The notes beneath the pieces were generated by a model that was not told where the DNA came from, did no database searches, and was given only the letters and a program-made list of their open reading frames with translations. Positions 39,856 to 56,293 of a stretch of 64,000 bases of DNA are shown here, piece by piece (positions within the stretch are counted from its first letter, which is position 1; each line of letters starts with the position of its first letter). The translations under genes were made by a program, and so were the position numbers. Where the stretch lies: assembly GCA_964371995.1 (NCBI GenBank), contig CAYJPG010000003.1:1718-65717 (forward strand). The letters are read 5' to 3'. This DNA comes from an uncultured Chromatiaceae bacterium (lineage in GTDB: Bacteria > Pseudomonadota > Gammaproteobacteria > Steroidobacterales > GCA-2729495).

Positions 39856-41118
39856 ATGGCAAAGCTGACGGATATACAGATTCGCACCTGGATCAAGTCC
39901 GGCGACCGATTCGCAGGGAGGAGCGACGGCAAGGGACTGACTCTCGTGTGGCGGGATGACGACCGGGTGCCGATCTGGCGCTTTCGCTACCGCTTCGCGG
40001 GCAAGCCGCGAACGATGAACTTGGGTAGCTACACCGACCTCTCCTTGGCGAAGGCCCGCGATACTGTGGAGACACTTCGGGCGCAGGTGAAGCTCGGCCA
40101 CGATGTTGCAGGAGAGAAGCAGGAGCGGAAGAAGAAGGCTGTGGCCAAGATCGAGGCCGCGAGGTTGGTGCGCACGGTCGGCCAGTTGGCGGACGAGTAT
40201 CTGGAGCGCGTGATCATCGGCCGCTGGAAGCACCCGAATATCGTCCGCAGTCGCATCGAGCGAGACATCAAGCCGAACATCGGGCTGATGGACGCCAAGG
40301 ATGTCCGGCCGCCGCATATTGACGATTTATTGAAAAAAATCCTCGCACGCGGGGCACCTACCGTTGCCAACGACGTACTGCGATGGCTTCGACGCATCTT
40401 CAACTTCGGTATCAAACGGGGCTATTTGGAAATGAACCCGGCGGCAGCGTTTGACCTGTCGGATGCCGGTGGCCGGGAGGAAGCCCGCGACCGATGGCTG
40501 ACCCTGGATGAGTTGGTGGTCCTGTTCGAGGCGATGCGCACCACCGCCGGCTTCACCGTGCAGAATGCGCACACCGTCCGGCTGCTGCTGATGCTGGCCG
40601 TCCGCAAGCAGGAACTGATCGCCGCTCGCGTGGCCGAACTCAATCTCGACAATGCCATCTGGATGCTGCCAGCCGAACGGACAAAGACCGGCAGGGAGAT
40701 CGCTATCCCGCTGCCGCCGCAGGCCGTAGCCTCGCTGCGGGAGTTGATCCGCCTCGGCGAAGGAAGCGCGTACTTGCTCCCCGCGCGCAAGGCCCAGGAC
40801 CGGATGCTGCCCCACATACACGAGAACACGTTAAACCAGGCATTGGCAAAACTACGTTCAAAACTTGGGACCATGCCTCATTTCACGGTCCACGACTTTC
40901 GGCGGACCGCCAAGACGCAGTTGCAGGCGCTCGGTACTGCACCGTGGATTTCCGAGCGATGCCTGAACCACAAGCTCAAGGGGGTCGAGGGTCGCTATGA
41001 CCGTTACAGTTACATTGACGAGCGGCGCGAGGCCCTGGGGAAATGGGCCAACGTCCTGGAACGCTGCGAGCACGGTATCGGACAGGTGACACCGATTCGG
41101 AAGCGAGCGGGTAACTAG
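39856..41118 (+). CDS. int: tyrosine recombinase, P4-type integrase
   Basis: N-terminal arm-binding domain KLTDIQIRTWIKSG...GKGLTLVW...WRFRYRFAGKPRTMNLGSYTDLSLAKARD. Catalytic region ...HDFRRTAKTQL...LNHKLKGVEGRYDRYSY (the R..HxxR..Y pattern). Confidence 0.9.
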   Translation: MAKLTDIQIRTWIKSGDRFAGRSDGKGLTLVWRDDDRVPIWRFRYRFAGKPRTMNLGSYTDLSLAKARDTVETLRAQVKLGHDVAGEKQERKKKAVAKIEAARLVRTVGQLADEYLERVIIGRWKHPNIVRSRIERDIKPNIGLMDAKDVRPPHIDDLLKKILARGAPTVANDVLRWLRRIFNFGIKRGYLEMNPAAAFDLSDAGGREEARDRWLTLDELVVLFEAMRTTAGFTVQNAHTVRLLLMLAVRKQELIAARVAELNLDNAIWMLPAERTKTGREIAIPLPPQAVASLRELIRLGEGSAYLLPARKAQDRMLPHIHENTLNQALAKLRSKLGTMPHFTVHDFRRTAKTQLQALGTAPWISERCLNHKLKGVEGRYDRYSYIDERREALGKWANVLERCEHGIGQVTPIRKRAGN

Positions 41119-41213
41119 CCGAACGCGGCTTGTGGACTCAAGATATTGAGCCACTTGAGGTTTTCTGACATGACCTGCTCTCTTGTGGGGTGCCTCGGAA
41201 AGGGTGATTGATA

Positions 41214-41240
41214 GTTCAGCTCCTCACAACGGAGCTGAAC
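41214..41240 (+). promoter_or_regulatory. 10-bp-stem hairpin/palindrome covering the Shine-Dalgarno sequence of the AlpA-like gene
   Basis: GTTCAGCTCC-tcacaac-GGAGCTGAAC ends 1 nt before ATG 41241. The GGAG of the right arm is the only SD-like element. Confidence 0.5.
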
Positions 41241-41477
41241 ATGTCTGAAAGCAACATTCCGGCGCTGCCGGAAGCCCTGAGGAACTTCGACGCCCTCCCT
41301 GACTCGGCCGAGGTCCGGCAACCGGTCGTTGAGGCCTTGTTCGGCATCAGCGCTGCCAGCGTCTGGCGCTGGTCACGCGCAGGCCTCTTGCCAAAGCCGC
41401 GCAAACGCGGGCTGCGCGTCACCACCTGGAATGTGGGAGAGCTGCGGGCCACCCTTCTGATGAGGGGCGTACCATGA
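41241..41477 (+). CDS. AlpA-family HTH regulator / putative excisionase
   Basis: Start chosen at ATG 41241. VRQPVVEALFGISAASVWRWSRAGLLPKPRKRGLRVTTWNVGEL matches the AlpA/phage HTH pattern. Confidence 0.7.
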   Translation: MSESNIPALPEALRNFDALPDSAEVRQPVVEALFGISAASVWRWSRAGLLPKPRKRGLRVTTWNVGELRATLLMRGVP

Positions 41478-42139
41478 AATCCAGCAGGAGCCGCACCAAG
41501 CTCGCCGACCCGCACGTTCGTCTCTATGGGTGGGAGCTGGCGTCGCCGGCCTACCGCTCGCTCTCTCCTGATGCCCGCGCGCTGCTCGTGGATTTCCGCT
41601 CACTGTTCTCCGGACGCGAGAACCGCGTGTTCTTCAGCATCCGGGACATGATGGAGAAGCTTGGCGGCACTGGTCAGGCTCGGGCAATGAACGCCCGGGA
41701 TGAGCTGCTGGATCGCGGCTGGATTCGTGAGATCGAGCGTGGCAGCTTCCACCGCAAAACACGGCTCGCAACAGTCTACGCGCTGACCAATGAGCCGATT
41801 CACCAGCGAGATGGACAGGTCGCACCAAAGGACTATATGCGCTGGAAGTCACCGAAAACGACAGTAGTTAAATTGGATACCGACAGTACCGATGCTGAAT
41901 ACCGAGTTTCGACTGAAAAAGCCGACTTTGCCGCTCACGGTAGTGAATCCGGATACCGTCAACCGGAAAAAGCACGATCCGCGGTAGCCGCCACGGGTAC
42001 ACAGATAGGTTACCAAGCGCAGCTTGATGCCCTACCACTGCTCTATGCCGCCTTCTGGTACCCGATGACTGACCAGCAGCAGATCGGCGCCATCCTGTTC
42101 GGTCTACTGAACCTATGCGAAGCCGGATCGTCCGCATGA
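41474..42139 (+). CDS. island hypothetical protein (possible winged-helix/replication-type)
   Basis: ATGA overlap with the upstream gene. No motif recognised. Its position is typical of regulatory or replication genes in small integrative elements. Confidence 0.55.
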   Translation: MKSSRSRTKLADPHVRLYGWELASPAYRSLSPDARALLVDFRSLFSGRENRVFFSIRDMMEKLGGTGQARAMNARDELLDRGWIREIERGSFHRKTRLATVYALTNEPIHQRDGQVAPKDYMRWKSPKTTVVKLDTDSTDAEYRVSTEKADFAAHGSESGYRQPEKARSAVAATGTQIGYQAQLDALPLLYAAFWYPMTDQQQIGAILFGLLNLCEAGSSA

Positions 42140-42381
42140 TCTGCCACTGCGGCGGCCAGACAATCCGAATGCGCGCCCGCGAAGGCGATGCGACGCTGAA
42201 GTGGCATCAGTGCGGCGCTTGTGGTCGATGTGACGGGTTTGAGCTGCACATCTGCGATGTACAGGCCGCAAACGGGCAAGCCGCGCGTCGGGTGTCCCAT
42301 GATTCTGCCGTAATCGCACTCATGTCCAGGCGATACCGCAAACGTGGCCGAGTCCTCGCACCTACGGAGACTGCGGCATGA
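42136..42381 (+). CDS. small Cys4 zinc-ribbon protein
   Basis: Start chosen at ATG 42136 (ATGA overlap). MICHCGG...CGACGRC. Confidence 0.5.
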   Translation: MICHCGGQTIRMRAREGDATLKWHQCGACGRCDGFELHICDVQAANGQAARRVSHDSAVIALMSRRYRKRGRVLAPTETAA

Positions 42382-42989
42382 ACGACACGATCTCGGATGA
42401 CGAAAACACCGAGTGGTCGAAGACCATGTCCGCCCATGCTCTTGATCCGCAATTCAGCGCGGCCGCCGTTTTGGATAGCTTTTCGACTAAGGAGTTCGGA
42501 AATCTCGACCTGAACACCCTCATGAGCATCCTGACCAGTGCCTGCCAGCGCATCGCCAGCGGCAATCTCGCCGACATCGAAGCCATGCTGTTCTCGCAGG
42601 CAACGGCCCTTCAAAGCATCTTTACGATGCTCGCCATGCAAGCCAGCCGTTCTCCGTGCGGCTACAAGCAGGTAGAGACCTATCTCCGGCTGGCCCTGAA
42701 ATCTCAGAACCAGTGCCGAGCCACACTGGAAACACTGGCGGCCATGAAAACCCCTCGCCAGGTGGCTTTCGTCGCCCAGACCAACATCGCCCACGGGCCG
42801 CAGCAGGTAAATAATTTTCCCGCACAAGCAGCCGGCGGGGTGGCCCCTGTCGAAAACTCGCCGAACGAACTATTGGAGAACCAGCATGGCGAACGGATGG
42901 ACACTGGAACGGCGGGTGCGGCAAGCGGAACGGATCCGAAGCTGGCAGCCGTGGAAACGGTCAACAGGGCCCCGGACCGCAGACGGTAA
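42378..42989 (+). CDS. island hypothetical protein
   Basis: ATGA overlap with the upstream gene. No motif recognised. Confidence 0.5.
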   Translation: MNDTISDDENTEWSKTMSAHALDPQFSAAAVLDSFSTKEFGNLDLNTLMSILTSACQRIASGNLADIEAMLFSQATALQSIFTMLAMQASRSPCGYKQVETYLRLALKSQNQCRATLETLAAMKTPRQVAFVAQTNIAHGPQQVNNFPAQAAGGVAPVENSPNELLENQHGERMDTGTAGAASGTDPKLAAVETVNRAPDRRR

Positions 42990-43178: not shown

Positions 43179-43415
43179 ATGTCCACGAAAAGCAGCGGAG
43201 GCGAAATCCTCACGATCAAGGACGTCGCCAAGTACCTAAAGGTCACCGAACGGACGATCTACCGGCTCGCTGGAGCCAAGAAGATTCCAGCCTTCAAGGT
43301 AGGCGGAACGTGGCGTTTTTCGCGCGTCGACATCGATAGCTGGATCAGGCAGCAATCGACCAGCAAGCCGGAACGTGCCAGGCGCGGAACATCCCATAAA
43401 GGGGAGCAGCAGTAA
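43179..43415 (+). CDS. excisionase-family (MerR-like) HTH DNA-binding protein, first gene of the defence operon
   Basis: Start chosen at ATG 43179; the ORF-track start at 43128 is TTG. ILTIKDVAKYLKVTERTIYRLAGAKKIPAFKVGGTWRFSRVDIDSWI. Confidence 0.7.
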   Translation: MSTKSSGGEILTIKDVAKYLKVTERTIYRLAGAKKIPAFKVGGTWRFSRVDIDSWIRQQSTSKPERARRGTSHKGEQQ

Positions 43416-46120
43416 TGCTTGGACTGACTCTACGAGAAGAATTCCGGGGCAAACGCCTCAAGGGCACAGCCATCGAGCTGTCCAACGACCAGAACACGGG
43501 CGCGACCCAGATTGCGGCCAAGCAGTTTCTGGATATCACCTATCCGACGCACGATCTGCTGAAAGGCATCGAAGCTGTCGGCCCCAACCAGGGCCGCCCC
43601 GTGGTCGTGATCGGCGAGCGCGGCCTTGGCAAGTCGCACTTGATGGCCGCGCTCTACCATGCGGTGACTGACCCGTTGTCGACCCGCTCGTGGCTCAACG
43701 CCTGGGCAACCACACTGGCCGACGCCAGCATCGGCAAGATCGCCCTGCGCGACGGGATGCACGTCATCGGCGAAAGCCTGCATCGCCACCGCTACAAATT
43801 CCTGTGGGATGTCCTGTTGGAGAACCATCCGCACGGCACCTTCATCAAGGGCAAGTGGGACGGCCAGGGCGCGTCCAAGACCGAAATCCCATCCGACAAG
43901 CTCATCATCGAGCTGCTGGAGAACAAGCCGACGATGCTGCTGCTGGATGAGTTCCAGACGTGGTACGACGGCCTCACCAACACCAAGCAGTACCCGTGGA
44001 AGAACTGGGCGTTCAACTTCATCCAGATTCTTTCGGAAATCGCCAAAGAAAGGCCAGACCTGCTAGTGCTGGTGATCTCGGTGCGTAACGGTGGCAGCGA
44101 CGCATATCAGCAGGTTCATCGTGTCAACCCGGTCGCCATCGACTTCAAGGCAGGCGGCAGCGCTGAGCGCATCCAGCAGGATCGCCGCCGCATGCTGTTG
44201 CACCGCTTGTTCGACAACCGCTTGCAGATCGCCAGCGGCACCATCGAATCGCTGGTCGCGCAGCACGTCGCTGAATCCTTCCGCCTGCTCGATGTGCCGT
44301 CCGCCGAGCAGGAGCGCAAGCGCCGAGAGTTCACCGAATCGTGGCCCTATGCACCGCACCTGCTGCGCCTACTGGAAGAGCAGGTGCTGATCGCCACCGA
44401 TGCGCAGGAAACGCGCGACCTGATTCGCATCCTCGCCAACCTCTACAAGAGCGGTGGCGAGGCCGTGCCCGTGCTCACCGCCGCCGACTTCCGGCTGGAC
44501 GACGATACCTCGGGCATCGGCGCGCTGCTCGAAGCCGTCGCCAACCAGCACCACCGCACGCTGCGCGACAAGGCGCAGCAGAACATCATCTCGGTGCAGG
44601 AAGCGCGGCACGACCACGTCAGCGGTGCGCCACACCTACAGGAAATCATCGGCGCACTGTGGCTGCGCTCGATCGCCGTCGGCAACCTCGCCGGAGCTGA
44701 ACCCGCCACGCTGCAACTGGACATCACCCGTGACAAGCCGGTGGACGACAACGCTTTCCAGGTCGAGTTGGCGACCATCGTGGAGAACAGCTTCAACATT
44801 CATCAGGAAGGCACCAAGCTGTTGTTCCGTGAGGAAGAGAACCCGCGCGCCAAGCTCATGGCCTATGCGCGCAACGACAAGCTGTTCGCCGACGGGGCGG
44901 ATCAGGAGCAGCTCGTCAGGCAGGTGCGCTACGTCATCGGCGGCAGCGACGAGGTCGCAAAGACCTTCCGCGTGATCGCCCTGCCGAAGTCGTGGGTCAA
45001 TGATCCTTGGACAGCGCTCGATGAAGCCGAGCAACCCGACAAGTGGGACGACCGTCTGCCCATCCTCGTGCTGCCCGAGGAAGCCGACAAGCTCGACGCA
45101 ACGCTGGGCCGCTGGCTCAAAGACCAGTTGCAGAAGCGCCGCAACACCGTGCGCTTCCTGCTACCGCGCGCGGGCAGTACCAACTCCTTTATGGATCACG
45201 ACCTGCTCATCCTCACCCGCGCCGCAATGAAGGCGCAGGAATGGGGCGGTCAGAACCCCGAATACAAGAAGCTGCACAAAGAGTTCGAAAATACCCTGCG
45301 CGACAACCTCAAGAAGCGCTTCGACCGCTTCGCCGTGCTGCAACGCTGGAACTTCGCCGACCCCGCGCAGTGCAAGTTCAGCGTCGAACCTCTCGACAAG
45401 CAGGGCTCGCAGATTCCCGAAGCCATCGAGGAGGCGCTGACCGGCGACCTTTTCGTGCCCGAGGACTTCGAGGAACTGGTGATCGAGTACGCCAGCAACA
45501 ACGAATCGGTCGGTAAGCTGCTGCGCGAGTTGCAGGAGCCGCGCCCTGCCGGCCAGGACTGCATCCCGTGGCTCGGCGAAACGGCAATGAAGGAACGCCT
45601 GCTGCGTCTGTGCGCCAAGGGCAAGGTCGCCATCAACTTGCGCGGCATGGAGTACCTGCAAACGAGCCCAGGCGAAGACGAGGACACCGCGTGGCGTCGG
45701 TTGCGGCCCAAGCTCTCGCTGACGGGTCGCCACCTCGACGACGTGTTTGTGATGTTGCCCTCGGCAGTCCCAGCCACCGGCGGCTCCACGCCATCGGCTC
45801 TGACGCCAGTAGCACTTGGTGAGGCGCCGCCCACATCCGGCAATGAATTTCCCCCAGCTATATCGCCAACGTCCACGTCGCACCGCATCTTCGACGACGG
45901 CAGCAGCACCACCAAGCCGCGCACGCCGCTGTCAAACCCGGCTACGTCACCGCTCAACCTGATCGGCAAAATCGAGGGGTGGGGCATCGGCCCGGCCACC
46001 AAGGTCGCGGAGGTGTCCATCAAGGTATCAGCCGCCACCGGAGCGCAGCTCAAGGAACTGCTCAAGAAGCTGCCCGAAGGCATGAGCTTCGAGCTGAACC
46101 TTGAGAAGGAGGACGATTGA
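43415..46120 (+). CDS. DUF499-type P-loop ATPase (BrxC/HmaC-like)
   Basis: TAATG overlap with the HTH gene. Walker A VIGERGLGKSHLMAAL, Walker B PTMLLLDEFQTW. Size and overall layout are as I recall for COG1483/DUF499 proteins. A P/S/T-rich linker precedes a small C-terminal domain. Confidence 0.75.
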   Translation: MLGLTLREEFRGKRLKGTAIELSNDQNTGATQIAAKQFLDITYPTHDLLKGIEAVGPNQGRPVVVIGERGLGKSHLMAALYHAVTDPLSTRSWLNAWATTLADASIGKIALRDGMHVIGESLHRHRYKFLWDVLLENHPHGTFIKGKWDGQGASKTEIPSDKLIIELLENKPTMLLLDEFQTWYDGLTNTKQYPWKNWAFNFIQILSEIAKERPDLLVLVISVRNGGSDAYQQVHRVNPVAIDFKAGGSAERIQQDRRRMLLHRLFDNRLQIASGTIESLVAQHVAESFRLLDVPSAEQERKRREFTESWPYAPHLLRLLEEQVLIATDAQETRDLIRILANLYKSGGEAVPVLTAADFRLDDDTSGIGALLEAVANQHHRTLRDKAQQNIISVQEARHDHVSGAPHLQEIIGALWLRSIAVGNLAGAEPATLQLDITRDKPVDDNAFQVELATIVENSFNIHQEGTKLLFREEENPRAKLMAYARNDKLFADGADQEQLVRQVRYVIGGSDEVAKTFRVIALPKSWVNDPWTALDEAEQPDKWDDRLPILVLPEEADKLDATLGRWLKDQLQKRRNTVRFLLPRAGSTNSFMDHDLLILTRAAMKAQEWGGQNPEYKKLHKEFENTLRDNLKKRFDRFAVLQRWNFADPAQCKFSVEPLDKQGSQIPEAIEEALTGDLFVPEDFEELVIEYASNNESVGKLLRELQEPRPAGQDCIPWLGETAMKERLLRLCAKGKVAINLRGMEYLQTSPGEDEDTAWRRLRPKLSLTGRHLDDVFVMLPSAVPATGGSTPSALTPVALGEAPPTSGNEFPPAISPTSTSHRIFDDGSSTTKPRTPLSNPATSPLNLIGKIEGWGIGPATKVAEVSIKVSAATGAQLKELLKKLPEGMSFELNLEKEDD

Positions 46121-47109
46121 TGGCACTGACCGCCAGCGCCTTGCAGGCCCTGACCCAAGGCTCCGACGCGGATGCTTGGCGCGTCATTGTTGAGCAGGCC
46201 GTCGAGATCGCCCGAAAGCCGCTGGCCGCAGGCAATTCGCCCAGCGAAGTCGTCGGGCGCGACCGCGAAATCGGCGCACTGGATCTGTTCCTCTCTTCCA
46301 GCGGCTGGGACTTGTGGCACGCCTTCGGCGACAGCGTGGAGCGCACCTCGGATCGCCTGACACGCTGGTGGGCCGAACCCTTCAGCGCCAAGGCGGTGCT
46401 GATCCTCGACGGCCTTTCCCTGCGCGAACTGCCGTGGCTGTTGCAGGGCGCGAAGGTGCGCGGTTTCACCACGCACGAGGTCGCTGCCTGCGCCTCCGAG
46501 CTGCCGGGCGAAACGGATGAGTTCGCTCGCGCGCTCGGCTTCGCCAGCCGCAGCAAACTCCAGAACAACGGCGGCGGCCTCGCGCACAAGCTGCAAGCCG
46601 CCAGCACCGAAACCGTCGACTTGCCGTGGAAGGACTGCCAAGCCCTGATCGGCAGTGCGCCGAACCAGGTCTTCTGGCACCACTGGCCCGACGCCAAGCT
46701 GCACGACGGCGCAGGCGCAGGCCAGGGGCTGGAGCCGTTAACCAAGGACGTGGCCGAGCAGTTGTCCAGCGATGACTTCTGGGCCTTCGTCGAGCGCCTC
46801 GCCACCGGGCGGCGGCTGGTCATCACCTCCGACCACGGCTACGCGGCCACCGGCCACTTCTCCGATGCCGATAGCGAGGTCGGCCATTTCCTCAAGCAGA
46901 CGTTTGGAAGCTCGCGCAGCAAGGCGGGAACCGGCGACACCGGCCCATTCGTGCCGCCAGTGGCATTGCAGATCAACAGCCCTCACGGCGCGCACCTGTT
47001 GGCCCTGGGCCGCAGGAAATGGCGCAGCCAGGGCGGCTACCCGACGCTCACGCACGGCGGCCTGTCGCTGCTGGAAGTGCTGTCGCCTTTCGTGGAGATC
47101 AGTAAATGA
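46120..47109 (+). CDS. short PglZ-like alkaline-phosphatase-superfamily protein
   Basis: TGATG overlap with the ATPase gene. Ordered landmarks: AVLILDGLSLRELPWLL, ELPGETDEFA, LVITSDHGYAATG, THGGLSLLEVLSPFVEI. Confidence 0.6.
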   Translation: MALTASALQALTQGSDADAWRVIVEQAVEIARKPLAAGNSPSEVVGRDREIGALDLFLSSSGWDLWHAFGDSVERTSDRLTRWWAEPFSAKAVLILDGLSLRELPWLLQGAKVRGFTTHEVAACASELPGETDEFARALGFASRSKLQNNGGGLAHKLQAASTETVDLPWKDCQALIGSAPNQVFWHHWPDAKLHDGAGAGQGLEPLTKDVAEQLSSDDFWAFVERLATGRRLVITSDHGYAATGHFSDADSEVGHFLKQTFGSSRSKAGTGDTGPFVPPVALQINSPHGAHLLALGRRKWRSQGGYPTLTHGGLSLLEVLSPFVEISK

Positions 47110-47594
47110 CATACACGGATGACGAATTGACCCGACTGATCGGCTGCAAAAAACGCATTTCCCAGGCGCCGAGGAAGGAGATGCGCACAGAGGGCCAGAT
47201 GCAGCGTAACGAATTGGAGCTTGAGTCGTTGGACGGCAAGCACTCGTTCCGTGTTTTCATGCGTCAGAGCCTGCAATTTTCTGAAAATTTTTCCATCGGG
47301 ATGGACTACCTGCCCAAGGATGAACCGGGCAGTTTCTGTCTCCTGCGCTGCAATGGAAGACATGGTGGACACAAGGTGCATCCACACCATCTGCATTGCC
47401 ATGTTCATCGCAGCAAGGCCGAAGACGTCAACGCTGGGCTTCGAGTCGAACGACATATCGACTCCACAGTGGAATATGCAGCTTTTCGCGATGCGCTGCG
47501 TTATTTCCTGCTCAGGACGAATGTGCAATCAGCGGATTTGTCCCAACATTTTCCGGGCATCACCCAACCTGACATGTTTGAAGACGAGGCATAG
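47106..47594 (+). CDS. hypothetical His-rich protein (embedded, lower GC)
   Basis: ATGA overlap with the upstream gene. LLRCNGRHGGHKVHPHHLHCHVH cluster. No family recognised. Confidence 0.55.
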   Translation: MTYTDDELTRLIGCKKRISQAPRKEMRTEGQMQRNELELESLDGKHSFRVFMRQSLQFSENFSIGMDYLPKDEPGSFCLLRCNGRHGGHKVHPHHLHCHVHRSKAEDVNAGLRVERHIDSTVEYAAFRDALRYFLLRTNVQSADLSQHFPGITQPDMFEDEA

Positions 47595-47596
47595 CC

Positions 47597-48370
47597 ATGA
47601 AAGCCATCGACCTACTCCAAAAACAATTCGGTGACTTCGTTCGTCTGGAGGAAAAGCGCCCGAACATCCAGCAGGTTTATGCGCCTCTCTACCATGAAGA
47701 CGGCGACATGATGGATCTTTTTCTCGATCTTCCCAAAGATGCCAATCTGACGGAAGACAAAGAGATTCGTATTTCCGATCACGGCATGACCTTGATGCGG
47801 CTCTCCTACGGCTTCGATCTGGATACGCCCAACAAGGAAAAAATATTCCAGCGCATCCTGCTCGAAAACGGTGTCAGCGAGAACGAAGGGGAAATCTATC
47901 TTGAAACCACGTCGGGTTCCCTATATCCGGCGTTGATGCAGTTCTCCCAAGCCATTGGCAAGGTCTGCAACATGCGCTTGTTCCGGCGCGAGACATTGCA
48001 CAGTCTGTTTGAAGAAATGCTCGGAGATTTTATCCGGGGAACGCTTGCTCGCTATCAGCCGACACCTTCGATTTGCCCCATTCCCGACAGGGACGATCTG
48101 GAAGTGGATTGGCAGTTCAAGCCGAATGGCACTCCCTTGTATCTGTTCGGCGTCAAGGACAACGCCCGCGCCCGGCTATCCACCATCAGTTGCCTTGAAT
48201 TTCAGCGCAACAAGCTGCCTTTCCGCAGCATGATCGTGCATGAAGACTTCGACAAGATCTGGCGCAAGGACAAGGCACGCCTGACATCGGCCTGCGACAA
48301 GCAATTCACATCGCTGGATGATTTCAAACAAAACGCAGAGCAATACCTGCTGCGTGAAACAGGGCATTGA
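47597..48370 (+). CDS. hypothetical protein (embedded, lower GC); resembles my recollection of DUF1828/DUF1829 proteins
   Basis: 2-nt gap from the upstream stop. N-terminal pattern YAPLYHEDGDMMDLFLD...IRISDHGMTLMRLSYGFDLDTPNKEKIFQRILLENGV. The family guess is unverified. Confidence 0.5.
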   Translation: MKAIDLLQKQFGDFVRLEEKRPNIQQVYAPLYHEDGDMMDLFLDLPKDANLTEDKEIRISDHGMTLMRLSYGFDLDTPNKEKIFQRILLENGVSENEGEIYLETTSGSLYPALMQFSQAIGKVCNMRLFRRETLHSLFEEMLGDFIRGTLARYQPTPSICPIPDRDDLEVDWQFKPNGTPLYLFGVKDNARARLSTISCLEFQRNKLPFRSMIVHEDFDKIWRKDKARLTSACDKQFTSLDDFKQNAEQYLLRETGH

Positions 48371-48376
48371 CGGCTG

Positions 48377-51300
48377 ATGGCCACCAAAAAAGAACTTCTC
48401 CAACAAGAAGTCGCGAAAGCCGTCGGCGCAGGCAAGGCGGTCGCGCTCGAAACGGTTGACTTCAACGACCCGAACCGCCCCAAAACCTGCCTGGAAGTGG
48501 ATTTCCCGATCCTACCGGTCAATCAGGTGGCGATCATCGAAGGCAACGCGGGCAAGCCGATCTACCAGATGTCGAAGTGGTGGGCGCGTCGGCGTTCCAG
48601 CGTGTTCCGCTCGATGCTGATCGCGGCGGCCACCAAAGCGCCGGACGACCCTTCGCACGCAGCCAAGCTGGTGTGGGACAACTACTACGCCAACCACCAG
48701 AAGAAAGGCGCGTTCAAGCACCTGAAGGTCGCCGACATCTTCATGGGCGGTGGCACCACGCTGGTGGAAGGCTCGCGCCTTGGCATGCAGATGGTCGGCA
48801 ACGACCTCAACCCGGTCGCGTGGTTCGTGGTCAAGCAGGAACTCGCTAATGTCGATCTGGAGCAGGTGAAAAAACTCCTCGCCGACATCGAGGCCGAGGT
48901 CAAGCCGCAGATCATGCCGTACTACTACTGCGACGGCCCGCAGGGTGAAAGGGGCACGTGGACGCACCTGCCGACGAACAAGGCAATGCCCGCCGACTTC
49001 GACCCGCTCGCCATCCCGCGTGACGAGCGCAAGGACTACCGCTACGAAGGCCCGGAGATCATCTACACCTTCTGGGCCAAGCACGGCCCCTGTCAGGTGA
49101 CGGGCTGCGGCCACCGGACGCCGATCATGACCAGCCCGGTGATGGCGGTGAAGACGCTCACCGTCAAGCATTGGACACACACCTGCGGCAAGTGCGGCGA
49201 AGCCTTCGACGTGGAGGAAGAAGCCGCGCGCATGGCACCCGATGCGCCGTTCTACGTCGCGCCCACCGAAGCTCCGTATTCCGTGCTCGACCGCAAGAAG
49301 GGCGTGATCTGCCCGCACTGCGGCCACACCGCAATGGTGAATCTCGGCAAGGGCAAGAACAAGAAGGTGGAACTGAGCCTGTTGGTCCATCCGCAATGGC
49401 TGGCGGGCGAGGCGAAGCAGGATGCAAACGGTCAGCCCTACGGCGGTTCGGCGCAGGACGATGTGGCGGCGACCACCCGTTGGGATGCGGCACGCGCTGC
49501 GAAGATTCGTCTGCTGGAAGTGCGCGGCGCGCTGCCGGATGAAGTGATTGACCCGGAGACGGGTGTCTCCTTCGCACCCAAAAAGGGCACGGTGCCGAAG
49601 AAGTCGCACTACGCCTGCTCGGCGTGCGGGACCGTGCAAGATGTCCTGGGCACCATCAAGGCGACGGGCAAGACGGGGCCGATGGCGGCCTACGCGGTGC
49701 AGGGTTACTCCCCGAAGCGAGATGAAGCGGGCAAACCCTACAGCGGTCGCTTCTTCGCCGCCCATGACGCGGCACACGCCAGGCAATGCGCGGCTGCATT
49801 CGCGGAGTGGGAAGCGCGGAAGGATGACGACCTAAAGGCCTATTGGCCGCGCTCAGAAGTGCCTTTTGGATTCATGACGCACATGAACAATGGCGGCATT
49901 CCAAACCACGGCTATACCCATTGGTGGACTATGTTTAACCCCCGCCAGTTGCTTGCGCAAGCGCAGATACTGAAGGGAATTCTGACTATTGGAGACTATC
50001 CTTGGGGGGTTAGAGAGGCGCTTCTAGGAGCATTCCAGCAGATCGTCCGCTATCGGAACATGTTCTGTTTCTGGGATATCAACTACGACAAGTTGGTGCC
50101 CCACATGAGCAATAACAACTACCACCCCAAGACGAACGTAGTCGAGGGATCTTGCTTTGGTGTCATGGGGAGTGGGCGCTGGTCTTCTTGTGCAGATGGC
50201 GTCTTGGAGGGGCTCGAATGGGGGGGGAATCCTTATGAGCTCGTTAGCCCCCAGTTTGTGTCTAGCGTTCGAAGCGACGGGGCTGAGAAGTCAACTAGCG
50301 AGAAAGTCTTTACTGGAGATCCAGTTCTTGCCGTGACGGTTCGTCAGGGTTCTTCCACTGAGCTGGATAGCATTGATTCCAGCAGCCTCGACCTGGTCAT
50401 CACCGATCCGCCCTTCGGCGGCCTTCTGCACTATTCGGAGCTTGCAGACTTTTTCTACGTTTGGTTGCGTCTTGCGCTGAAGGACAAGTACCCGGACTAC
50501 TTCACCGCCGACTACACGCCAAAGTCACTGGAGGCTGTGGCCAACAAAGCGCGCGAACCGGAAGACCCGGACGGGTTTTATCAGCGGCTGCTCACCCAAT
50601 GCTGGCGCGAAGCGCATCGTGCGCTCAAGCCCAGCGGCATCCTGGCCTTCACTTTCCACCACAGCGAAGATGAGCCGTGGGTGGCAGTGCTGGAATCGCT
50701 GTTCGACGCGGGCTACTACCTCGAAGCAACGTACCCCATCCGCTCAGATGAGACCAAGGGAGAAGGCGGGAAGCCCGGGACCTTTGGCTCGCAGACTATC
50801 GAGTACGACATCATCCACGTCTGCCGCAAGCGCACCGAAGAACCCAAGGCGGTGAGTTGGGGCCGGATGCGCCGCGAGGTGATGGCCGACGTGCGCCAGT
50901 TGCAGGCGATGTTGGAGAACCACGCCAAGGAAGGCTTGCCCGCCGCCGACATCCAGGTGATCCGGCGCGGCAAGGCGCTGGAATACTTCTCGCGTCACTA
51001 CGGCAAGGTGTATGTGGACGAAGACCGCACCATCTCCGTGCGCGACGCGCTGGTGGGCATCAACCAGCTCATCGACGAGGACGCCGACAAGGGCAAGGAA
51101 CCGCCGCCGGTCAACGCCGAGCCGATCACGCGCCAGTTCCTGCGCACCTTCGGCAACGCGCCTGAGCTCAAGCGCGACCAGTTGCAAAAGTTCCTCAAGG
51201 GGTCGATCACCACGCCGGACGAGTTCGCGCAGCGCGGCTGGTGTGCGGAGAAGAACAAGGTGTTCACCCGCACCGATGCGCTGGAATTCGCCCGCGAGTG

Positions 51301-51595
51301 GTCGGGCAAGCATCGCCGCAAACTGACGTCCGACCTGGATCAGGCGCTGGTGCTGATCGGCGCGTGCTTCGACGGCAGCGGCATCAATGCGTCGGACACG
51401 CTAAAGAACGACAACTTCAAGCCGCACGTGGCGCTGAAGCCCTTGCTGGAATGGCTGCACCGCAACGGCCCGGATCAGACCACCCGCAATGCGGCCTCGC
51501 GTGCAGTGTCCATCCACAATGTTTGGCACGCCAGCCAGGTGCCGCAGCCCGCGCAGGCTTCCTTGTTCGATGACGATGGGGAGTACGAGCGATGA
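48377..51595 (+). CDS. DUF1156-type Zn-ribbon DNA methyltransferase (PglXI/HmaB-like)
   Basis: N-terminal DFPILPVN...SKWWARRRS. SAM motif ADIFMGGGTTLVEG. Four CxxC-type pairs (CQVTGCGH, CGKCGEAF, CPHCGH, CSACGT). Catalytic LVITDPPFGG. Confidence 0.85.
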   Translation: MATKKELLQQEVAKAVGAGKAVALETVDFNDPNRPKTCLEVDFPILPVNQVAIIEGNAGKPIYQMSKWWARRRSSVFRSMLIAAATKAPDDPSHAAKLVWDNYYANHQKKGAFKHLKVADIFMGGGTTLVEGSRLGMQMVGNDLNPVAWFVVKQELANVDLEQVKKLLADIEAEVKPQIMPYYYCDGPQGERGTWTHLPTNKAMPADFDPLAIPRDERKDYRYEGPEIIYTFWAKHGPCQVTGCGHRTPIMTSPVMAVKTLTVKHWTHTCGKCGEAFDVEEEAARMAPDAPFYVAPTEAPYSVLDRKKGVICPHCGHTAMVNLGKGKNKKVELSLLVHPQWLAGEAKQDANGQPYGGSAQDDVAATTRWDAARAAKIRLLEVRGALPDEVIDPETGVSFAPKKGTVPKKSHYACSACGTVQDVLGTIKATGKTGPMAAYAVQGYSPKRDEAGKPYSGRFFAAHDAAHARQCAAAFAEWEARKDDDLKAYWPRSEVPFGFMTHMNNGGIPNHGYTHWWTMFNPRQLLAQAQILKGILTIGDYPWGVREALLGAFQQIVRYRNMFCFWDINYDKLVPHMSNNNYHPKTNVVEGSCFGVMGSGRWSSCADGVLEGLEWGGNPYELVSPQFVSSVRSDGAEKSTSEKVFTGDPVLAVTVRQGSSTELDSIDSSSLDLVITDPPFGGLLHYSELADFFYVWLRLALKDKYPDYFTADYTPKSLEAVANKAREPEDPDGFYQRLLTQCWREAHRALKPSGILAFTFHHSEDEPWVAVLESLFDAGYYLEATYPIRSDETKGEGGKPGTFGSQTIEYDIIHVCRKRTEEPKAVSWGRMRREVMADVRQLQAMLENHAKEGLPAADIQVIRRGKALEYFSRHYGKVYVDEDRTISVRDALVGINQLIDEDADKGKEPPPVNAEPITRQFLRTFGNAPELKRDQLQKFLKGSITTPDEFAQRGWCAEKNKVFTRTDALEFAREWSGKHRRKLTSDLDQALVLIGACFDGSGINASDTLKNDNFKPHVALKPLLEWLHRNGPDQTTRNAASRAVSIHNVWHASQVPQPAQASLFDDDGEYER

Positions 51596-52089
51596 GACAA
51601 CTGCGCGACCCAGTCTGGCAGGTGCGCGGCACCAGTTGGGTATGGGACGAAGAGGCGCGCAACCAGGTCTGCACGGCCAGCGAGGTTTGGAGCCTGCGCC
51701 AGTTCCTGCGGGCGAAAGGAAACTGGCCGGATGCTCTTCCGAGCAACGGTGGCAGGACGCTGGTGGTGGCCGGTCTGGACGGAAGCCTCGATCTGCTGAC
51801 ACCGACGGATGCCGAAGTGTGGCTAGGTGATGCGATCAAACCCGCCATCCTGTCCTTTCAGGACGATTGGGGAAGCGACGGCGCACTGGTGTTCTGGCTA
51901 CCCGGCGGCCACAACCGCGTCAGGGCGCACGCCGCCACCGATGAGGTGGGCTGGCTGTGTCACGCACCCCATGGGCATCAGATCGACCTCGGTCGCATCC
52001 TGTGGGGCCAAGCCAACGAGTACCCGCAGGAAATCCTGCTGCACCACGGTGGCAAGCCCGCTGGCCTGTTCCACCTGCGGATTACTTGA
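51592..52089 (+). CDS. hypothetical protein coupled to the methyltransferase
   Basis: ATGA overlap with the methylase stop. 165 aa. GC content is like the rest of the operon. No motif recognised. Confidence 0.55.
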   Translation: MRQLRDPVWQVRGTSWVWDEEARNQVCTASEVWSLRQFLRAKGNWPDALPSNGGRTLVVAGLDGSLDLLTPTDAEVWLGDAIKPAILSFQDDWGSDGALVFWLPGGHNRVRAHAATDEVGWLCHAPHGHQIDLGRILWGQANEYPQEILLHHGGKPAGLFHLRIT

Positions 52090-52099
52090 GGGCGGCTGA

Positions 52100-54874
52100 G
52101 TGACGGCAGAGATTCAGTTCCAACCCGGCGAGCGCATCACCCACCACGAATACGGTCAAGGTGTCGTCCTCGACCCGGCGCGTGACGGCTATCTGCGTGC
52201 GTTTTTCGGCGTCGGCGAACGCCGGGTGCCGGTGGCGTCGCTGCGGCGCGAACTAACGCGCACCGAGCGTATCCTGCGCACCGTGGATGGCGGCGCAGAG
52301 CGGTCGCGCAAGGCGTGGCTGGCCTATGAAGCGCATGCACTTCCGGTGATGGAAAGCGCCTCGGCGCTGACCTCGGCCAAGATCGATCTGCTGCCGCATC
52401 AGGTGGTGCTGACTCACCGGATTGCGACCGCCTCACCCCGGCGTTACCTGATCGCCGACGAGGTGGGGCTAGGCAAGACCATCGAAACCGCGCTGATCCT
52501 TCGCGAGCTGGCCAGCCGGGGTGAATTGACTCGCGCGCTGATGGTGGTGCCTGCGGGCCTCGTGAACAACTGGCACCGCGAGCTGAACGAGGTGTTCAAC
52601 CTCGACTTCGAGGTGTTCGGTTCCGAGGGCGACATCACCGACCGCAAGACCAACGCCTTCGCCAAGCACGACCGGCTGATCGCCAGCATCGATACGCTGA
52701 AGCGCCCGGCACGCATCAAGCGCCTGCTGGACGCGCCGCGCTGGGATCTGGTGGTGTTCGACGAAGCGCATCACCTCACGGCCTACAAGACCGGCGGCAA
52801 GGTGCGCAAGACCGAGAACTACAAGCTGGCCGAGGCGCTGAAAGATCATTCGCGCGACCTGCTGCTGCTGTCGGCCACGCCGCACCAAGGCAATCACTTC
52901 CAGTTCTGGATGCTGGCGCAACTGCTGAACCCGACGCTGTTCCGCAGCCCCGAGGAGATGCTGGAGGAGAGGCACCGGCTCAACACAGTGATGTTCCGCC
53001 GCACCAAGGCTGACGCCTGTCAGCCCGATGGCTCGCCGCTGTTCGCGCGGCGCTGGGTTCATACCGAATCCTTCGTGATGAACCCAGCCGAACGGCTGTT
53101 TTACGAGAAGCTGCGCGAGTACTTGGAGGATGGCTTCGACCTCGCACGCCGCCAAGGCAACCAGGGGCGTGCGCTGGGCTTCCTGATGGTGATCTTCCAA
53201 AAGATCGCGGCGTCGAGCTTCGCCGCCGTGCGCCGCACCCTCAAGCGCCGCATGCTGATGCTGACGCTGCACGAGGCGTTCCTGCGCGACAAGGAACTGG
53301 ACATCGAAGGCCGCGAGCGCCTGACCGAGGAGGCGCGCGAGCTGATCCACGAGGAGTTTGGACTGCCGCGCGACAGCGTCGGGCGCAGTGAGGTGGATCG
53401 CGTGCTGGCCGATCTGAAGTACCGGCTGGTCAAGAAGCTGGACGAAGAGGCGCTGGAGATGGCCTCCGACCCCTATGCCAGCGAGTATTCCGCCACGCAC
53501 GCGGAAGAAGCCGCTTCGGCGGTGGTGAACCTGCATCTGCCCGAGGAGCGCCTGCGCATCGGCGACCTGCTGCGCGTGTTCCCGGCAGAGCGCGAAACCA
53601 AGATGCAAAAGCTGCTCGATGGCTTGGGCACGCTGTGGCGGCAGAACCCCAACGAGAAGATCGTGATCTTCGCCACCTACCTCGGCACGGTGGACATGAT
53701 CGCCCGGGAGATCGAACAGACCTTCCCCGGCCAGGGCGTCGCCGTGCTACGCGGCGGTGATCACGGCGCGAAAGTAGCGGCGGAGCGGCGCTTCCGCCTG
53801 AAGGACGGCCCACGCGTGCTGGTCTGTACAGCGGCCGGGCGCGAAGGTATCAACCTCCAGTTCGCACGCGTCTTGTTCAATTTCGACCTGCCGTGGAATC
53901 CGATGGACATGGAGCAGCGCATCGGGCGCATCCATCGCTATGGCCAGAGCCATACCGCGCAGGTCTACAACCTCGTGCTCTCGGACACCATCGAAGGCCG
54001 CATCTTCCTGCTGCTCGACGAGAAGCTCACCGAGATCGCCCGCACGGTCGGCAAGGTGGATGACCAGGGCAACGTGGCCGAAGACCTGCGCGCGCAGATT
54101 CTCGGCCAGTTGTCGGAACGCTTGAACTACGACCGGCTGTATCAGGAGGCGCTGTCCGACCCAGAGCTGAAACGCACGCAGGTGGAGCTGGAAGCGGCGC
54201 TGTCGAACTCCCGCGAGGCGCGGCAGGTGGTGTTCGATCTATTCCAGGACCTCGATGGATTCAGCCTCGACGACTACAAGCCCTTCTCGGACGTATCGTC
54301 CAGTCTGGATCGGTTGGTGCGCTTTTTCTCGGTGGCGGTCGCGGATCGCCAGCAGAAACTGGTGAAAGTGGACGATGCCACCTACGACCTCGTTACCGCC
54401 GAAGGCTCGCGCCGCGTCCGCTTTACCTTGAACCGCGAAGCGGCGACGAATCAGGACGCGTTGCAACTGATGGGCTTGGATCACCCGTTGGTGCAAGAGG
54501 AACTGGGGCGCTGGCGCAGCGTGCCACCGGAGGAAATCGGTATCGCCGTGTCGGGCGACGTGGACGAGCCGGTACTGTTGTCGCTGTGGATGGTTGAGGC
54601 GTCCGTCGGCAACGGGGAGCGCCGTGTGGTGGTGCAGCCCATTGCTGTGAAACTGGATGGCACACGCATCCCGGCGGTCGAACGCCTGTGTGAGCAATAC
54701 CTACAGGCTCCACCCGCCACACCGGTGTTTCGACCGGAACAGCGAAGCGAGCTGTTTACCCTGGCCGTTGAGCCGACCTTACAGCGGGAACTGAAGCACA
54801 AGGGAACCGCGAATGGCGATGGCAGCTATTCTGCGGAACTGATCGGGTATGTGGAGATCGCCCCACAGCAGTGA
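52100..54874 (+). CDS. SNF2-family helicase (BrxHII/HmaA-like) with an N-terminal Tudor/DUF3553-like module
   Basis: GTG start 10 nt after the upstream stop. LLPHQ, motif I DEVGLGKT, motif II FDEAHHL, III LLLSATPHQG, VI QRIGRIHRYGQ. N-terminal PGERITHHEYGQGVVLD...AFFGVGERRVPVASL. Confidence 0.9.
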   Translation: MTAEIQFQPGERITHHEYGQGVVLDPARDGYLRAFFGVGERRVPVASLRRELTRTERILRTVDGGAERSRKAWLAYEAHALPVMESASALTSAKIDLLPHQVVLTHRIATASPRRYLIADEVGLGKTIETALILRELASRGELTRALMVVPAGLVNNWHRELNEVFNLDFEVFGSEGDITDRKTNAFAKHDRLIASIDTLKRPARIKRLLDAPRWDLVVFDEAHHLTAYKTGGKVRKTENYKLAEALKDHSRDLLLLSATPHQGNHFQFWMLAQLLNPTLFRSPEEMLEERHRLNTVMFRRTKADACQPDGSPLFARRWVHTESFVMNPAERLFYEKLREYLEDGFDLARRQGNQGRALGFLMVIFQKIAASSFAAVRRTLKRRMLMLTLHEAFLRDKELDIEGRERLTEEARELIHEEFGLPRDSVGRSEVDRVLADLKYRLVKKLDEEALEMASDPYASEYSATHAEEAASAVVNLHLPEERLRIGDLLRVFPAERETKMQKLLDGLGTLWRQNPNEKIVIFATYLGTVDMIAREIEQTFPGQGVAVLRGGDHGAKVAAERRFRLKDGPRVLVCTAAGREGINLQFARVLFNFDLPWNPMDMEQRIGRIHRYGQSHTAQVYNLVLSDTIEGRIFLLLDEKLTEIARTVGKVDDQGNVAEDLRAQILGQLSERLNYDRLYQEALSDPELKRTQVELEAALSNSREARQVVFDLFQDLDGFSLDDYKPFSDVSSSLDRLVRFFSVAVADRQQKLVKVDDATYDLVTAEGSRRVRFTLNREAATNQDALQLMGLDHPLVQEELGRWRSVPPEEIGIAVSGDVDEPVLLSLWMVEASVGNGERRVVVQPIAVKLDGTRIPAVERLCEQYLQAPPATPVFRPEQRSELFTLAVEPTLQRELKHKGTANGDGSYSAELIGYVEIAPQQ

Positions 54875-55028
54875 TCGGAACGGAGGTTACCGTGGTCTCT
54901 TGCCTGAGCGCTTAGGCATGGTCCGAGGATAAGCGGGGCCGGCTGAAGTTAATGCGACACTTCCGACCGTCGGGTCACGGTGGGGCTTCAATGAGCCAAA
55001 GATTTTCTGGAGTTCGGCCATCGGCACA

Positions 55029-55409
55029 TCAAGACCGGGAATATCGGATACCTCGGGTATATCTATCAGCCCGCACCTCCGCCACCGCCTGATCCCACAG
55101 CTCCTGAGCGTTAGCGTAAGCCTGAAGGTCGGCAGCCAGCTTCTGTAGCGTTTCCGTCCACCTGTCACTGCCGTCCAGTTCCAGGAGCGCATCCTCGCAT
55201 CGGCGGACGTAGTCCTGATCCGGCGTGAACTCCGCGTAGACTCCCAAAGTCGGGTAAGAACCGTAGTCATGGTCCTGCGAACAGATTCCCAACTCATGCC
55301 AGGGGGGTGGCGGCCCAAGCTCTCTCAGCAGGTGCGTCAGCGCCTCCTTCAGTGCCAGCTCCTCCGGCACATCGCCAGTGCTCAGGCTACCGATGCTTTC
55401 CCAAGGCAT
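55029..55409 (-). CDS. hypothetical acidic protein at the distal end of the island
   Basis: ATG 55409 is preceded by AGGGGAGGGAG. 126 aa. No motif recognised. Confidence 0.55.
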   Translation of the reverse strand: MPWESIGSLSTGDVPEELALKEALTHLLRELGPPPPWHELGICSQDHDYGSYPTLGVYAEFTPDQDYVRRCEDALLELDGSDRWTETLQKLAADLQAYANAQELWDQAVAEVRADRYTRGIRYSRS

Positions 55410-55530: not shown

Positions 55531-55550
55531 GTGTACCCGGGCGTGTACCC
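55531..55550. repeat. two GTGTACCC 8-mers at the right end of the island
   Basis: GTGTACCC at 55531 and 55543, the reverse complement of the GGGTACAC copies at the left end. GTGTACCCGG (55531-55540) is the exact inverse of CCGGGTACAC (39835-39844). Confidence 0.6.
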
Positions 55551-55636: not shown

Positions 55637-56293
55637 ATGTCTGTGCCGGATTTGCCGCAAACGGAAAGCAGCGGGCCGACGACCGGCACACTGTTCGTGC
55701 TCTCTGCGCCCTCCGGCGCCGGAAAGACCACGCTGGTCAAGGCCCTGATGGCGCGCGATCCGGATCTCTGCTTCTCCGTCTCTTTCACCACGCGCAAACC
55801 ACGGCCAGGTGAAGTACCGGAACGCGATTATTTCTTCGTGGATGAGGCCCGCTTTGGGGCGATGGTCGCAGCCGGTGAGTTTCTGGAACATGCCCGCGTA
55901 TTCGGCAACCTCTATGGCACCAGCCGCACGCAGGTCAATGCCATACTCGCCAAAGGGCGGAACGTGCTGCTTGAGATTGACTGGCAGGGCGCGCGACAGA
56001 TCCGGAAGAATGCGCCGCACTGCTGTTCGATCTTCATCATGCCGCCCAGCGCAACTGAACTCGAACGCCGCTTGCGCAGCCGGGCGACAGATTCTGAAGA
56101 CGTGATCCGGCAGCGCCTCAGCCAGGCCTTCGACGATATGGCGCACTGGCACGAGTTTGACTACGTGGTGATCAACAGCGACCAGCGACGGGCCTGCGAT
56201 GACCTTGGCGCCATTATTCAGGGCCGCGGACAACACCTGTCAGCTGCTTCGGCTGAGCGCGCCGAGGCGGTCAAGGCAATCATTGCAGGCTGA
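55637..56293 (+). CDS. gmk: guanylate kinase
   Basis: LFVLSAPSGAGKTTLVKAL...SVSFTTRKPRPGE..G.DYFFV...EIDWQGA. Confidence 0.95.
   Translation: MSVPDLPQTESSGPTTGTLFVLSAPSGAGKTTLVKALMARDPDLCFSVSFTTRKPRPGEVPERDYFFVDEARFGAMVAAGEFLEHARVFGNLYGTSRTQVNAILAKGRNVLLEIDWQGARQIRKNAPHCCSIFIMPPSATELERRLRSRATDSEDVIRQRLSQAFDDMAHWHEFDYVVINSDQRRACDDLGAIIQGRGQHLSAASAERAEAVKAIIAG

Follow-up and report, generated by a model that had tools for sequence, protein, structure and literature searches.

BREX-related (BR) systems are centered on a DUF499 ATPase and have been divided into three types (Rakesh & Krishnan, NAR 2026, PMC12839542). In that survey, Type-3 BR systems were found in 569 taxa. They have an ATPase-methylase-helicase core in which the DUF499 ATPase is an ORC/Cdc6-like AAA+ protein, the target recognition domain (TRD) of the N6-adenine methylase is nested within its catalytic core, and the helicase shows the BrxHII architecture without a nuclease. 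Some of their methylases carry two 4-Cys zinc fingers in the TRD; a standalone active PglZ is near-universal, and a separate inactive STAND (iSTAND; BrxB/BrxF-like) gene occurs in 82% of taxa (PMC12839542). Here we analyzed an operon of eight open reading frames (ORFs), all on the + strand at 43179-54874, in a 64,000-nt stretch (the window) of the uncultured Chromatiaceae bacterium contig CAYJPG010000003.1 (GCA_964371995.1; positions 1,718 to 65,717, forward strand). We put the probability at roughly 0.82 that this locus is a copy of a Type-3 BR system that carries a second, unrelated defense candidate within its operon. The original prediction, made from the sequence of the window, had called the layout non-canonical and had known no name for it; the layout in fact matches Type-3 BR, a class already known and defined computationally alone, and the locus is no new architecture.

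The sole experimental mechanism in the BR family is that of MANTIS, or Gao_RL, a Type-2 BR system (bioRxiv 10.64898/2026.09.23.753747). In MANTIS, the DUF499 ATPase MtsA loads the methylase MtsC, which the small protein MtsB co-activates; 6-bp asymmetric sites are hemimethylated, and a helicase-nuclease restricts DNA, preferentially between inverted sites (bioRxiv 10.64898/2026.09.23.753747). The DUF499 AAA+ ATPases of the locus and of MANTIS are homologous, and both systems combine an N6-methylase with a small essential co-factor gene and an effector of the helicase family. The locus differs in that MANTIS has the DUF3780 protein MtsB and the phospholipase D (PLD)-nuclease-helicase fusion MtsD, whereas the locus has PglZ instead. 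In profile searches, no ORF of the operon matched DUF3780 and no HKD/PLD nuclease was fused to the helicase, and the NCBIfam model phospholipD_antiphage aligned solely to the helicase C-lobe (residues 476-655).

Conservation and identity of the core genes

Relatives of the locus were collected by a PglZ scan of 185,579 species genomes, with one genome per species, and 484 of these genomes contained a PglZ relative. Every protein of the window was compared by tblastn with the best 80 of the 484 species loci, whose PglZ proteins are 75-94% identical to that of the window. The unit that stays constant across these loci is [HTH]-ATPase-PglZ-methylase-165-aa protein-helicase, and since the core order and the junction types recur in dozens of species genomes, the arrangement is not due to chance. 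Judged against the 80 loci, the operon is not the one eight-gene system that had been proposed; it consists of a five-gene core, a helix-turn-helix (HTH) regulator and an unrelated mobile two-gene cassette. The best 80 loci come from alpha-, beta- and gamma-proteobacteria and, as metagenome-assembled genomes, from Planctomycetota, Verrucomicrobiota, Acidobacteriota, Chloroflexota, cyanobacteria and a Solidesulfovibrio, and this wide spread at 75-94% PglZ identity points to frequent horizontal transfer of the operon.

In operon order, the junctions in the window are TAATG, TGATG, ATGA, a 2-nt gap, a 6-nt gap, ATGA and a 10-nt gap; the ORF list and a reading of the window sequence bear out the eight same-strand ORFs and the junctions as first described. 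A simple consensus scan found no promoter-like site in the operon interior and no excess of terminator-like sites in the operon block. Across the related loci, with an insert of >400 nt counted as an interruption, the ATPase-PglZ junction (an overlap when compact) was interrupted in 0/74, the PglZ-methylase junction (a 3-13 nt gap) in 20/66, the junction between the methylase and the 165-aa gene (mostly a 4-nt overlap) in 4/63, and that between the 165-aa gene and the helicase (a 9-10 nt gap) in 7/55. The 165-aa gene (core gene 4; 51592-52089, + strand) was found in all 63 related loci that keep both the methylase and its region, and its start directly adjoins or overlaps the stop of the methylase gene in 59 of these, mostly by a 4-nt ATGA.

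These counts bear on the reading that the locus is an ordinary Hma (Type-1 BR) trio into which five passenger genes have been embedded, PglZ and the 165-aa ORF among them. A trio of DUF499 ATPase, DUF1156 methylase and SNF2 helicase was reportedly predicted as a defense system in the 2011 defense-island survey of Makarova et al., and this trio is called Hma in PADLOC. The locus does contain a helicase-methylase-ATPase trio with same-strand defense genes nested between core genes, as Hma does, and PADLOC matched all of HmaA (2.4e-92), HmaB (1.4e-34) and HmaC (2e-4), the last of these marginally. Embedded genes are also common in Hma, occurring in 62.7% of systems (bioRxiv 10.1101/2024.01.29.577857). 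However, passengers would vary between loci, whereas PglZ and the 165-aa gene, both missing from Hma, are present in every sufficiently complete related locus, one behind a junction that is never interrupted and the other behind one that is compact in 59/63. The Hma helicase, moreover, usually has a nuclease, and the C-terminal PD-(D/E)xK nuclease typical of Type-1 BR helicases (79% of taxa) is absent here; the cassette of the window is not a named HEC system, its PDC-M24B match extending over one domain only. We regard the Hma reading as very unlikely.

Core gene 2 (46120-47109, + strand) encodes a standalone PglZ of 329 aa with an alkaline-phosphatase/NPP fold, identified by a structural model and by a family profile. 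As a single sequence it matched nothing in Pfam or the PDB, and it reached only 17.6 bits (9e-4) against NCBIfam BREX_PglZ_3, with the last 36 residues covered and a cutoff of 250. An exhaustive search returned 365 cluster representatives of this PglZ, nearly all of them standalone proteins of ~330 aa, and its own 90%-identity cluster has 583 members. In an alignment of 42 homologs reaching down to 30% identity, D97, S100 and D238 are invariant and T132, H239 and H312 nearly so; the motifs are DGLS at residue 97, SDHG at 237 and HGG at 312. Pfam PglZ was weakly matched by 5 of the 42 family members, and the family profile found 9nv3_C ('PglZ domain-containing protein'; 1.9e-7) and PorX (~5e-3) in the PDB. 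The AlphaFold2 model (pLDDT 93.8, pTM 0.93) retrieved with Foldseek the PorX PglZ structures 8tef and 7pv7 (E ~1e-11), the BREX PglZ 9zn5_B (2.7e-6) and then NPP-family phosphodiesterases. By its predicted fold, then, the 329-aa ORF is the PglZ that had been suspected, with candidate metal-site and nucleophile residues intact, and it is indeed far shorter than BREX PglZ proteins.

BREX type 3 was reportedly defined by Goldfarb et al. in 2015 by the genes BrxF, BrxC, PglXI, BrxHII, PglZ and BrxA. The locus resembles it in the PglXI-like architecture of its methylase, in its BrxHII-like helicase, in the presence of PglZ and in an AAA+ ATPase that falls in the same broad clade, and a reduced or degenerate BREX type 3 system would account for the best PADLOC match of the helicase (BrxHI/BrxHII, 4.3e-102, followed by HmaA, with DrmD also below), for the PglXI match of the methylase (6.4e-23) and for the contact of the PglZ C-terminus with BREX_PglZ_3. 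Yet the PglZ of BREX type 3 is multi-domain, with ~640 aa or more, whereas that of the locus has no extra domains. No ORF gave a BrxA/DUF1819-type match in Pfam, NCBIfam or PADLOC, BrxF was likewise unmatched in these three libraries, and no small ORF matched BrxF in NCBIfam or PADLOC even at permissive E-values. Decay would not leave a gene set this stable across 484 species, and the ATPase belongs to the DUF499 lineage, which the published phylogeny splits from the BrxC lineage (PMC12839542). A degenerate BREX type 3 system is in our view highly improbable. The earlier claim that the locus fits neither the Hma trio nor BREX type 3 was upheld by PglZ and the 165-aa gene as core genes and by the unmatched BrxA and BrxF.

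The remaining core proteins agree with Type-3 BR. Core gene 1 (43415-46120, + strand) encodes a DUF499-type AAA+ ATPase of 901 aa, BrxC/MtsA-like, that passed Pfam DUF499 (34 bits, cutoff 23) and has a Walker A motif GERGLGKS at residue 67 and a Walker B motif MLLLDE at 174; it is 70-93% identical across 74 related loci. Core gene 3 (48377-51595, + strand) encodes an N6-adenine DNA methyltransferase of 1072 aa (Pfam N6_N4_Mtase, 29.5 bits, cutoff 26.7), with WWARR at residue 68, motif I FMGGG at 122 and motif IV DPPF at 677. Motifs I and IV are ~550 residues apart, and the insert between them carries CxxC at 270, 312 and 414 as well as a further Cx4C pair just before residue 270, seen by reading the printed sequence; from these features, we assign the insert as a nested TRD with zinc fingers. 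Core gene 5 (52100-54874, + strand, GTG start) encodes a BrxHII-like SNF2-family helicase of 924 aa (Pfam SNF2-rel_dom 1.6e-21, Helicase_C 3.1e-18) with GLGKT at residue 123, DEAH at 221 and QRIGR at 606. It is 81-97% identical in related loci, and profile searches found no fused nuclease domain. The motifs quoted in the original prediction for the ATPase, methylase, helicase and PglZ were all located in the translations, and profiles and fold substantiated its parts list of a DUF499-type ATPase, a DUF1156-related N6-methylase, an SNF2 helicase and a short PglZ. The locus combines the DUF499 ATPase, the methylase whose nested TRD bears two Cys4-type zinc fingers, the nuclease-less BrxHII-like helicase and the fusion-free PglZ with retained active site of Type-3 BR and, like it, has one further small conserved gene in the core. 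It differs in its MAD1-like HTH gene and its two-gene cassette, neither of which is in the main text of PMC12839542.

Among 63-69 homologs, identity falls to 46% in a variable segment of the ATPase (aa 800-850; >85% elsewhere) and down to 40% in a hypervariable segment of the methylase (aa 450-650; >85% in the catalytic parts). In one related locus (L008), the methylase is 98% identical to that of the window, and the ATPase and PglZ are 93% identical. Together, the two variable segments and these mosaic identities suggest that specificity modules are exchanged by recombination.

The 165-aa protein is the least conserved core protein (mean identity 73%). It had no sequence match in Pfam, NCBIfam, PADLOC (even at permissive E-values), PHROG or the PDB, its family profile gave spurious beta-propeller matches alone in the PDB, and 33 family members scanned against NCBIfam gave no relevant match. 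Its position, its universality and the fastest divergence among the core proteins would fit the 'inactive STAND' partner of Type-3 BR, for which we consider it a candidate. The supplements of PMC12839542 give KAA0250883.1 as a representative PglZ and EKO9556875.1 as a representative iSTAND protein; the cluster look-up returned neither accession.

The first gene of the operon (43179-43415, + strand) encodes a MAD1-like HTH protein of 78 aa (Pfam HTH_17, 4.9e-19), which passed the cutoff of NCBIfam antiphage_MADS1 (82.6 bits, cutoff 80) and matched PADLOC mad1 (2.5e-11). Its stop overlaps the ATPase start via TAATG. The HTH gene lies 5' of the ATPase in many related loci, at identities of merely 53-79%, and in some related loci tblastn detected no HTH homolog there. 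By analogy, the protein is the probable transcriptional regulator of the operon. The MAD1 match raised the question of membership in MADS (Maestri et al.; bioRxiv 10.1101/2023.03.30.534895), likewise a methylation-based operon of eight genes, the first of them an HTH gene of the MAD1 type, and PADLOC gave weak matches to mad2 (5e-9, methylase) and mad8 (1.7e-3, ATPase P-loop). We rejected this assignment since MAD3-MAD8 were unmatched, except that mad8 marginally matched the P-loop (16 bits, with no single stretch passing). The mandatory genes of the MADS detection model, MAD6, MAD7 and MAD8, are not present in the locus, whereas MAD1, 2 and 5 are accessory in that model because they resemble common regulators and restriction-modification parts. 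That the locus is a MADS or MADS-like system is barely credible.

The embedded cassette and its cargo slot

Two genes of the window separate PglZ from the methylase. Cassette gene A (47106-47594, + strand) encodes a His-rich protein of 162 aa (HPHHLHCHVHR; phrog_27326, 1.8e-15), and cassette gene B (47597-48370, + strand) encodes a DUF1828-domain protein of 257 aa (Pfam DUF1828, 2.6e-17; phrog_5059, 1.1e-24); the PHROG families of both are of unknown function. PADLOC PDC-M24B matched the DUF1828 protein in its N-terminal half only (2.4e-14), and the 162-aa protein had no PADLOC match even at E<=10; PDC-M24 needs genes A and B, and only its gene B was matched here. Our searches found neither functional literature on DUF1828 nor a related solved structure for the family, and DUF1828 is not mentioned in the main texts of PMC12839542 or bioRxiv 10.1101/2024.01.29.577857. 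The cassette is the sole undescribed part of the locus.

Neither cassette gene occurs at any of the 80 species loci; there, PglZ is followed directly by the methylase or by other cargo. In the window, the cassette substitutes for ~6 nt of the ancestral spacer, and the start context of the methylase, CGGCTG-ATG, is kept. Three small ORFs had been described as spliced into the operon and unassignable. The description as insertions holds for the 162-aa and 257-aa ORFs, which accompany the trio in none of the 80 species loci, and fails for the 165-aa ORF, which accompanies it as PglZ does and is part of the core (63/63 loci); as for assignment, the 257-aa ORF has its Pfam DUF1828 domain, and the 165-aa ORF was unmatched in all libraries.

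Outside this operon, 1138 DUF1828 homologs were detectable, and each cassette gene belongs to a 20-member cluster at 90% identity. A homolog of the 162-aa gene lies 5' of the DUF1828 gene, usually with a 4-nt overlap, in every context examined but one (L097); the pairing was seen in 9/9 further metagenomic contexts and also in L095, L096 and Pseudomonas phage 5399. The cassette occupies the same slot between PglZ and the methylase in two other loci, one with a Type-3 BR core ~50% identical to that of the window (L085) and one with a core ~77-88% identical (L095). It also occurs in prophage or phage DNA, adjoining a terminase or tail gene X (L086-L089), and standing alone between housekeeping genes (L090-L093, L096). 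In L097 (4106-5035), a DUF1828 gene 79% identical to that of the window is flanked by a ResIII helicase/Bro-N gene on one side and an N6_N4 methylase gene on the other, and its 162-aa partner is reduced to a 49-residue remnant; the cassette is found here, in decayed form, inside a different restriction-like operon. In Pseudomonas phage 5399 (PQ758389.1, 3399-4690; L094), the pair is located directly 3' of the cI repressor gene on the same strand. The upstream gene of this phage pair has 28% identity to the 162-aa protein (E 1e-16), and the HPH...HCH(V/I)HR motif is common to both. The position downstream of cI is classically held by prophage exclusion genes such as lambda rexAB.

From these contexts, the 162-aa and DUF1828 genes are a separate, independently mobile two-gene module that landed in the spacer between PglZ and the methylase, and their phage and standalone settings make the cassette a reasonable defense candidate. 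One further interpretation, which we offer tentatively and at slightly less than even odds, is that the cassette is an autonomous anti-phage module moving among temperate phages, chromosomes and BREX-related operons, and that the spacer is a dedicated cargo slot of Type-3 BR. If this were true, whole defense systems (SIR2-HerA, IetAS, the cassette and several unknown genes) would be swapped in the slot with its tight spacing kept.

Consistent with such a slot, expanded spacers between PglZ and the methylase in related loci contain a complete SIR2-HerA system (PADLOC 1.9e-90 and 4.5e-223) or a complete IetAS system (PADLOC 5.1e-145 and an E-value reported as 0); the main text of PMC12839542 makes no mention of SIR2-HerA or IetAS in this slot. 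Recurrent genes of 307-312 aa (L026:10990-11928, L029, L067, L074), 158 aa (L051:11008-11484, L031) and 249 aa (L031:6892-7641) occupy the same slot without a Pfam or PADLOC match, and they may be further defense candidates. The spacer between the 165-aa gene and the helicase holds either HEC-01A-like ABC ATPases (2e-140), a feature shared with Hma, or a Schlafen/AlbA_2-HATPase_c_4 protein. Embedded defense genes as such are published for Hma-type operons (Payne et al., bioRxiv 10.1101/2024.01.29.577857), and Rakesh & Krishnan have reported 'backup effectors' embedded in BR systems (PMC12839542).

Alternatively, the cassette could be an accessory specific to a BR subtype, such as a modification reader or regulator, or a toxin-antitoxin (TA) addiction pair, and no separate defense module. 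Its translational coupling into the operon, its recurrence in the same slot of at least two further BR loci that have diverged to different degrees (L085, L095) and its two-gene layout with a 4-nt overlap, which is typical of TA pairs, would be in line with such roles. A subtype-specific part, however, is hard to square with the occurrence of the cassette where BR genes are missing (flanked by housekeeping genes, in phage or prophage DNA, and beside cI), with its absence from all 80 species loci that otherwise keep the core order, or with complete known systems filling the same slot elsewhere. We consider this alternative unlikely and retain the cassette as a second, unrelated defense candidate within a Type-3 BR operon.

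Several points weigh against this overall assignment. The PADLOC match of the ATPase to HmaC is weak, and the methylase scored 86.8 bits against NCBIfam DUF1156_antiphage, far under its cutoff of 1000, and did not reach the Pfam DUF1156 model in a Pfam scan. Because the methylase lies below these DUF1156 thresholds, automatic tools may miss the system. For the iSTAND feature of Type-3 BR, the 165-aa ORF is the sole conserved candidate, with an unusable AlphaFold model (pLDDT 43.6, from an alignment of 80-93% identity) and no P-loop sequence link, hhalign of its family against the ATPase P-loop domain being insignificant. The cassette is probably co-transcribed as an independent second layer of protection, a role based on its context, and HEC-01, another embedded candidate, gave no protection on testing (bioRxiv 10.1101/2024.01.29.577857). 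The role of PglZ as a nuclease, phosphatase or signaling enzyme is not yet settled even in BREX itself. Finally, the searchable literature yielded no experimental work on Type-3 BR and, as had been anticipated, no mechanistic description of this architecture, so that the mechanism outlined below proceeds by analogy.

Possible mechanism and relevance

In a mechanism modeled on BREX and MANTIS, the MAD1-like HTH protein would control transcription of the operon. The methylase would mark adenines of host DNA within a short asymmetric site that its nested hypervariable TRD recognizes, and the DUF499 AAA+ ATPase would load and activate the methylase and scaffold the complex. The 165-aa protein might serve as a small co-factor coupling PglZ to the ATPase, like BrxB in BREX. 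On unmethylated incoming DNA, the SNF2 motor would translocate, and PglZ, as a phosphodiesterase or nuclease, would be the effector, replacing the fused nuclease of other BR subtypes. The embedded cassette would be co-transcribed and add an independent layer of defense. The candidacy of PglZ as effector comes from BREX: the PglZ of Type I BREX is reported to be a nuclease dependent on metal and to enter a sub-complex with BrxB (PMC11974810), and dimers of PglZ and BrxB are reportedly bound by BrxC (cited in bioRxiv 10.64898/2026.09.23.753747).

The means by which BREX-type systems block phage DNA has yet to be settled, and the question centers on what PglZ does. The subtype described here is a stripped-down case, with a 329-aa PglZ that has no extra domains, a nuclease-less helicase and a single small partner protein. 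Given this reduced gene set, together with its extreme conservation and apparent high transferability, it would be a convenient system for asking if PglZ acts as the effector of restriction. Others have already pointed out this value of the class, which is not a discovery of this window; specific to the window are a clean instance of a cargo slot inside an operon and an uncharacterized two-gene cassette. NCBI names for the cluster members of PglZ, the 165-aa protein and the 162-aa protein are all 'hypothetical protein', with an occasional 'PglZ domain-containing' in UniRef, and such records include Pseudomonas aeruginosa, Burkholderia vietnamiensis, Nitrosomonas eutropha and Ralstonia mannitolilytica. 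Because public records name the proteins in this way, the system may be overlooked in routine annotation.

The integrase island and its surroundings

The operon is part of an inserted element of ~16 kb that is flanked by two chromosomal genes, yicC (38806-39672) and gmk (55637-56293), the latter followed on its 3' side by a RelA/SpoT-family gene and then recG. The element carries a tyrosine integrase gene (39856-41118, + strand; Pfam Arm-DNA-bind_3, Phage_int_M and Phage_integrase) and an AlpA-like gene (41208-41477, + strand; weak AlpA match), which agrees with the integrase island originally proposed. Its backbone also includes a 221-aa ORF (41474-42139, + strand) with a weak match to phrog_270, a replication initiation protein family (5.5e-5), and a 203-aa ORF (42378-42989, + strand). 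The phrog_270 match suggests that the island, once excised, may be able to replicate. Several metagenome contigs carry identical copies of the element, and in two of them (L001 and L004) the integrase backbone also lies 5' of the operon. This backbone was not found at the 80 species loci, and therefore the operon travels on different vehicles.

The motif KGTACMC occurs 29 times in the window, versus 11.4 +/- 3.7 expected, and 0 of 100 shuffles reached 29. It forms clusters at the left island end just 5' of the integrase gene (39765-39844), at the right island end (55531-55550) and near the end of the 221-aa ORF (41995-42063). The clusters place the island ends at ~39.75 and ~55.55 kb, and they may be integrase arm sites or iterons. 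When the two ends were compared, no exact direct repeat of at least 10 nt, and so no att repeat, was found. No tRNA gene was found either.

Between the helicase stop and the right island end, two overlapping ORFs of 126 and 143 aa lie on the - strand (54887-55409), and neither had a match in Pfam, PHROG or PADLOC. Elsewhere in the window, a 2044-aa ORF (11069-17203, - strand) encodes a polymorphic toxin of the Tc/Rhs type, with SpvB, FG-GAP, TcdB-middle and RHS-repeat domains, that is unrelated to the operon. Close to it lie genes for a pilQ-type secretin, a 3-dehydroquinate synthase and a class A penicillin-binding protein, as well as rmuC, which indicates that the window is chromosomal.

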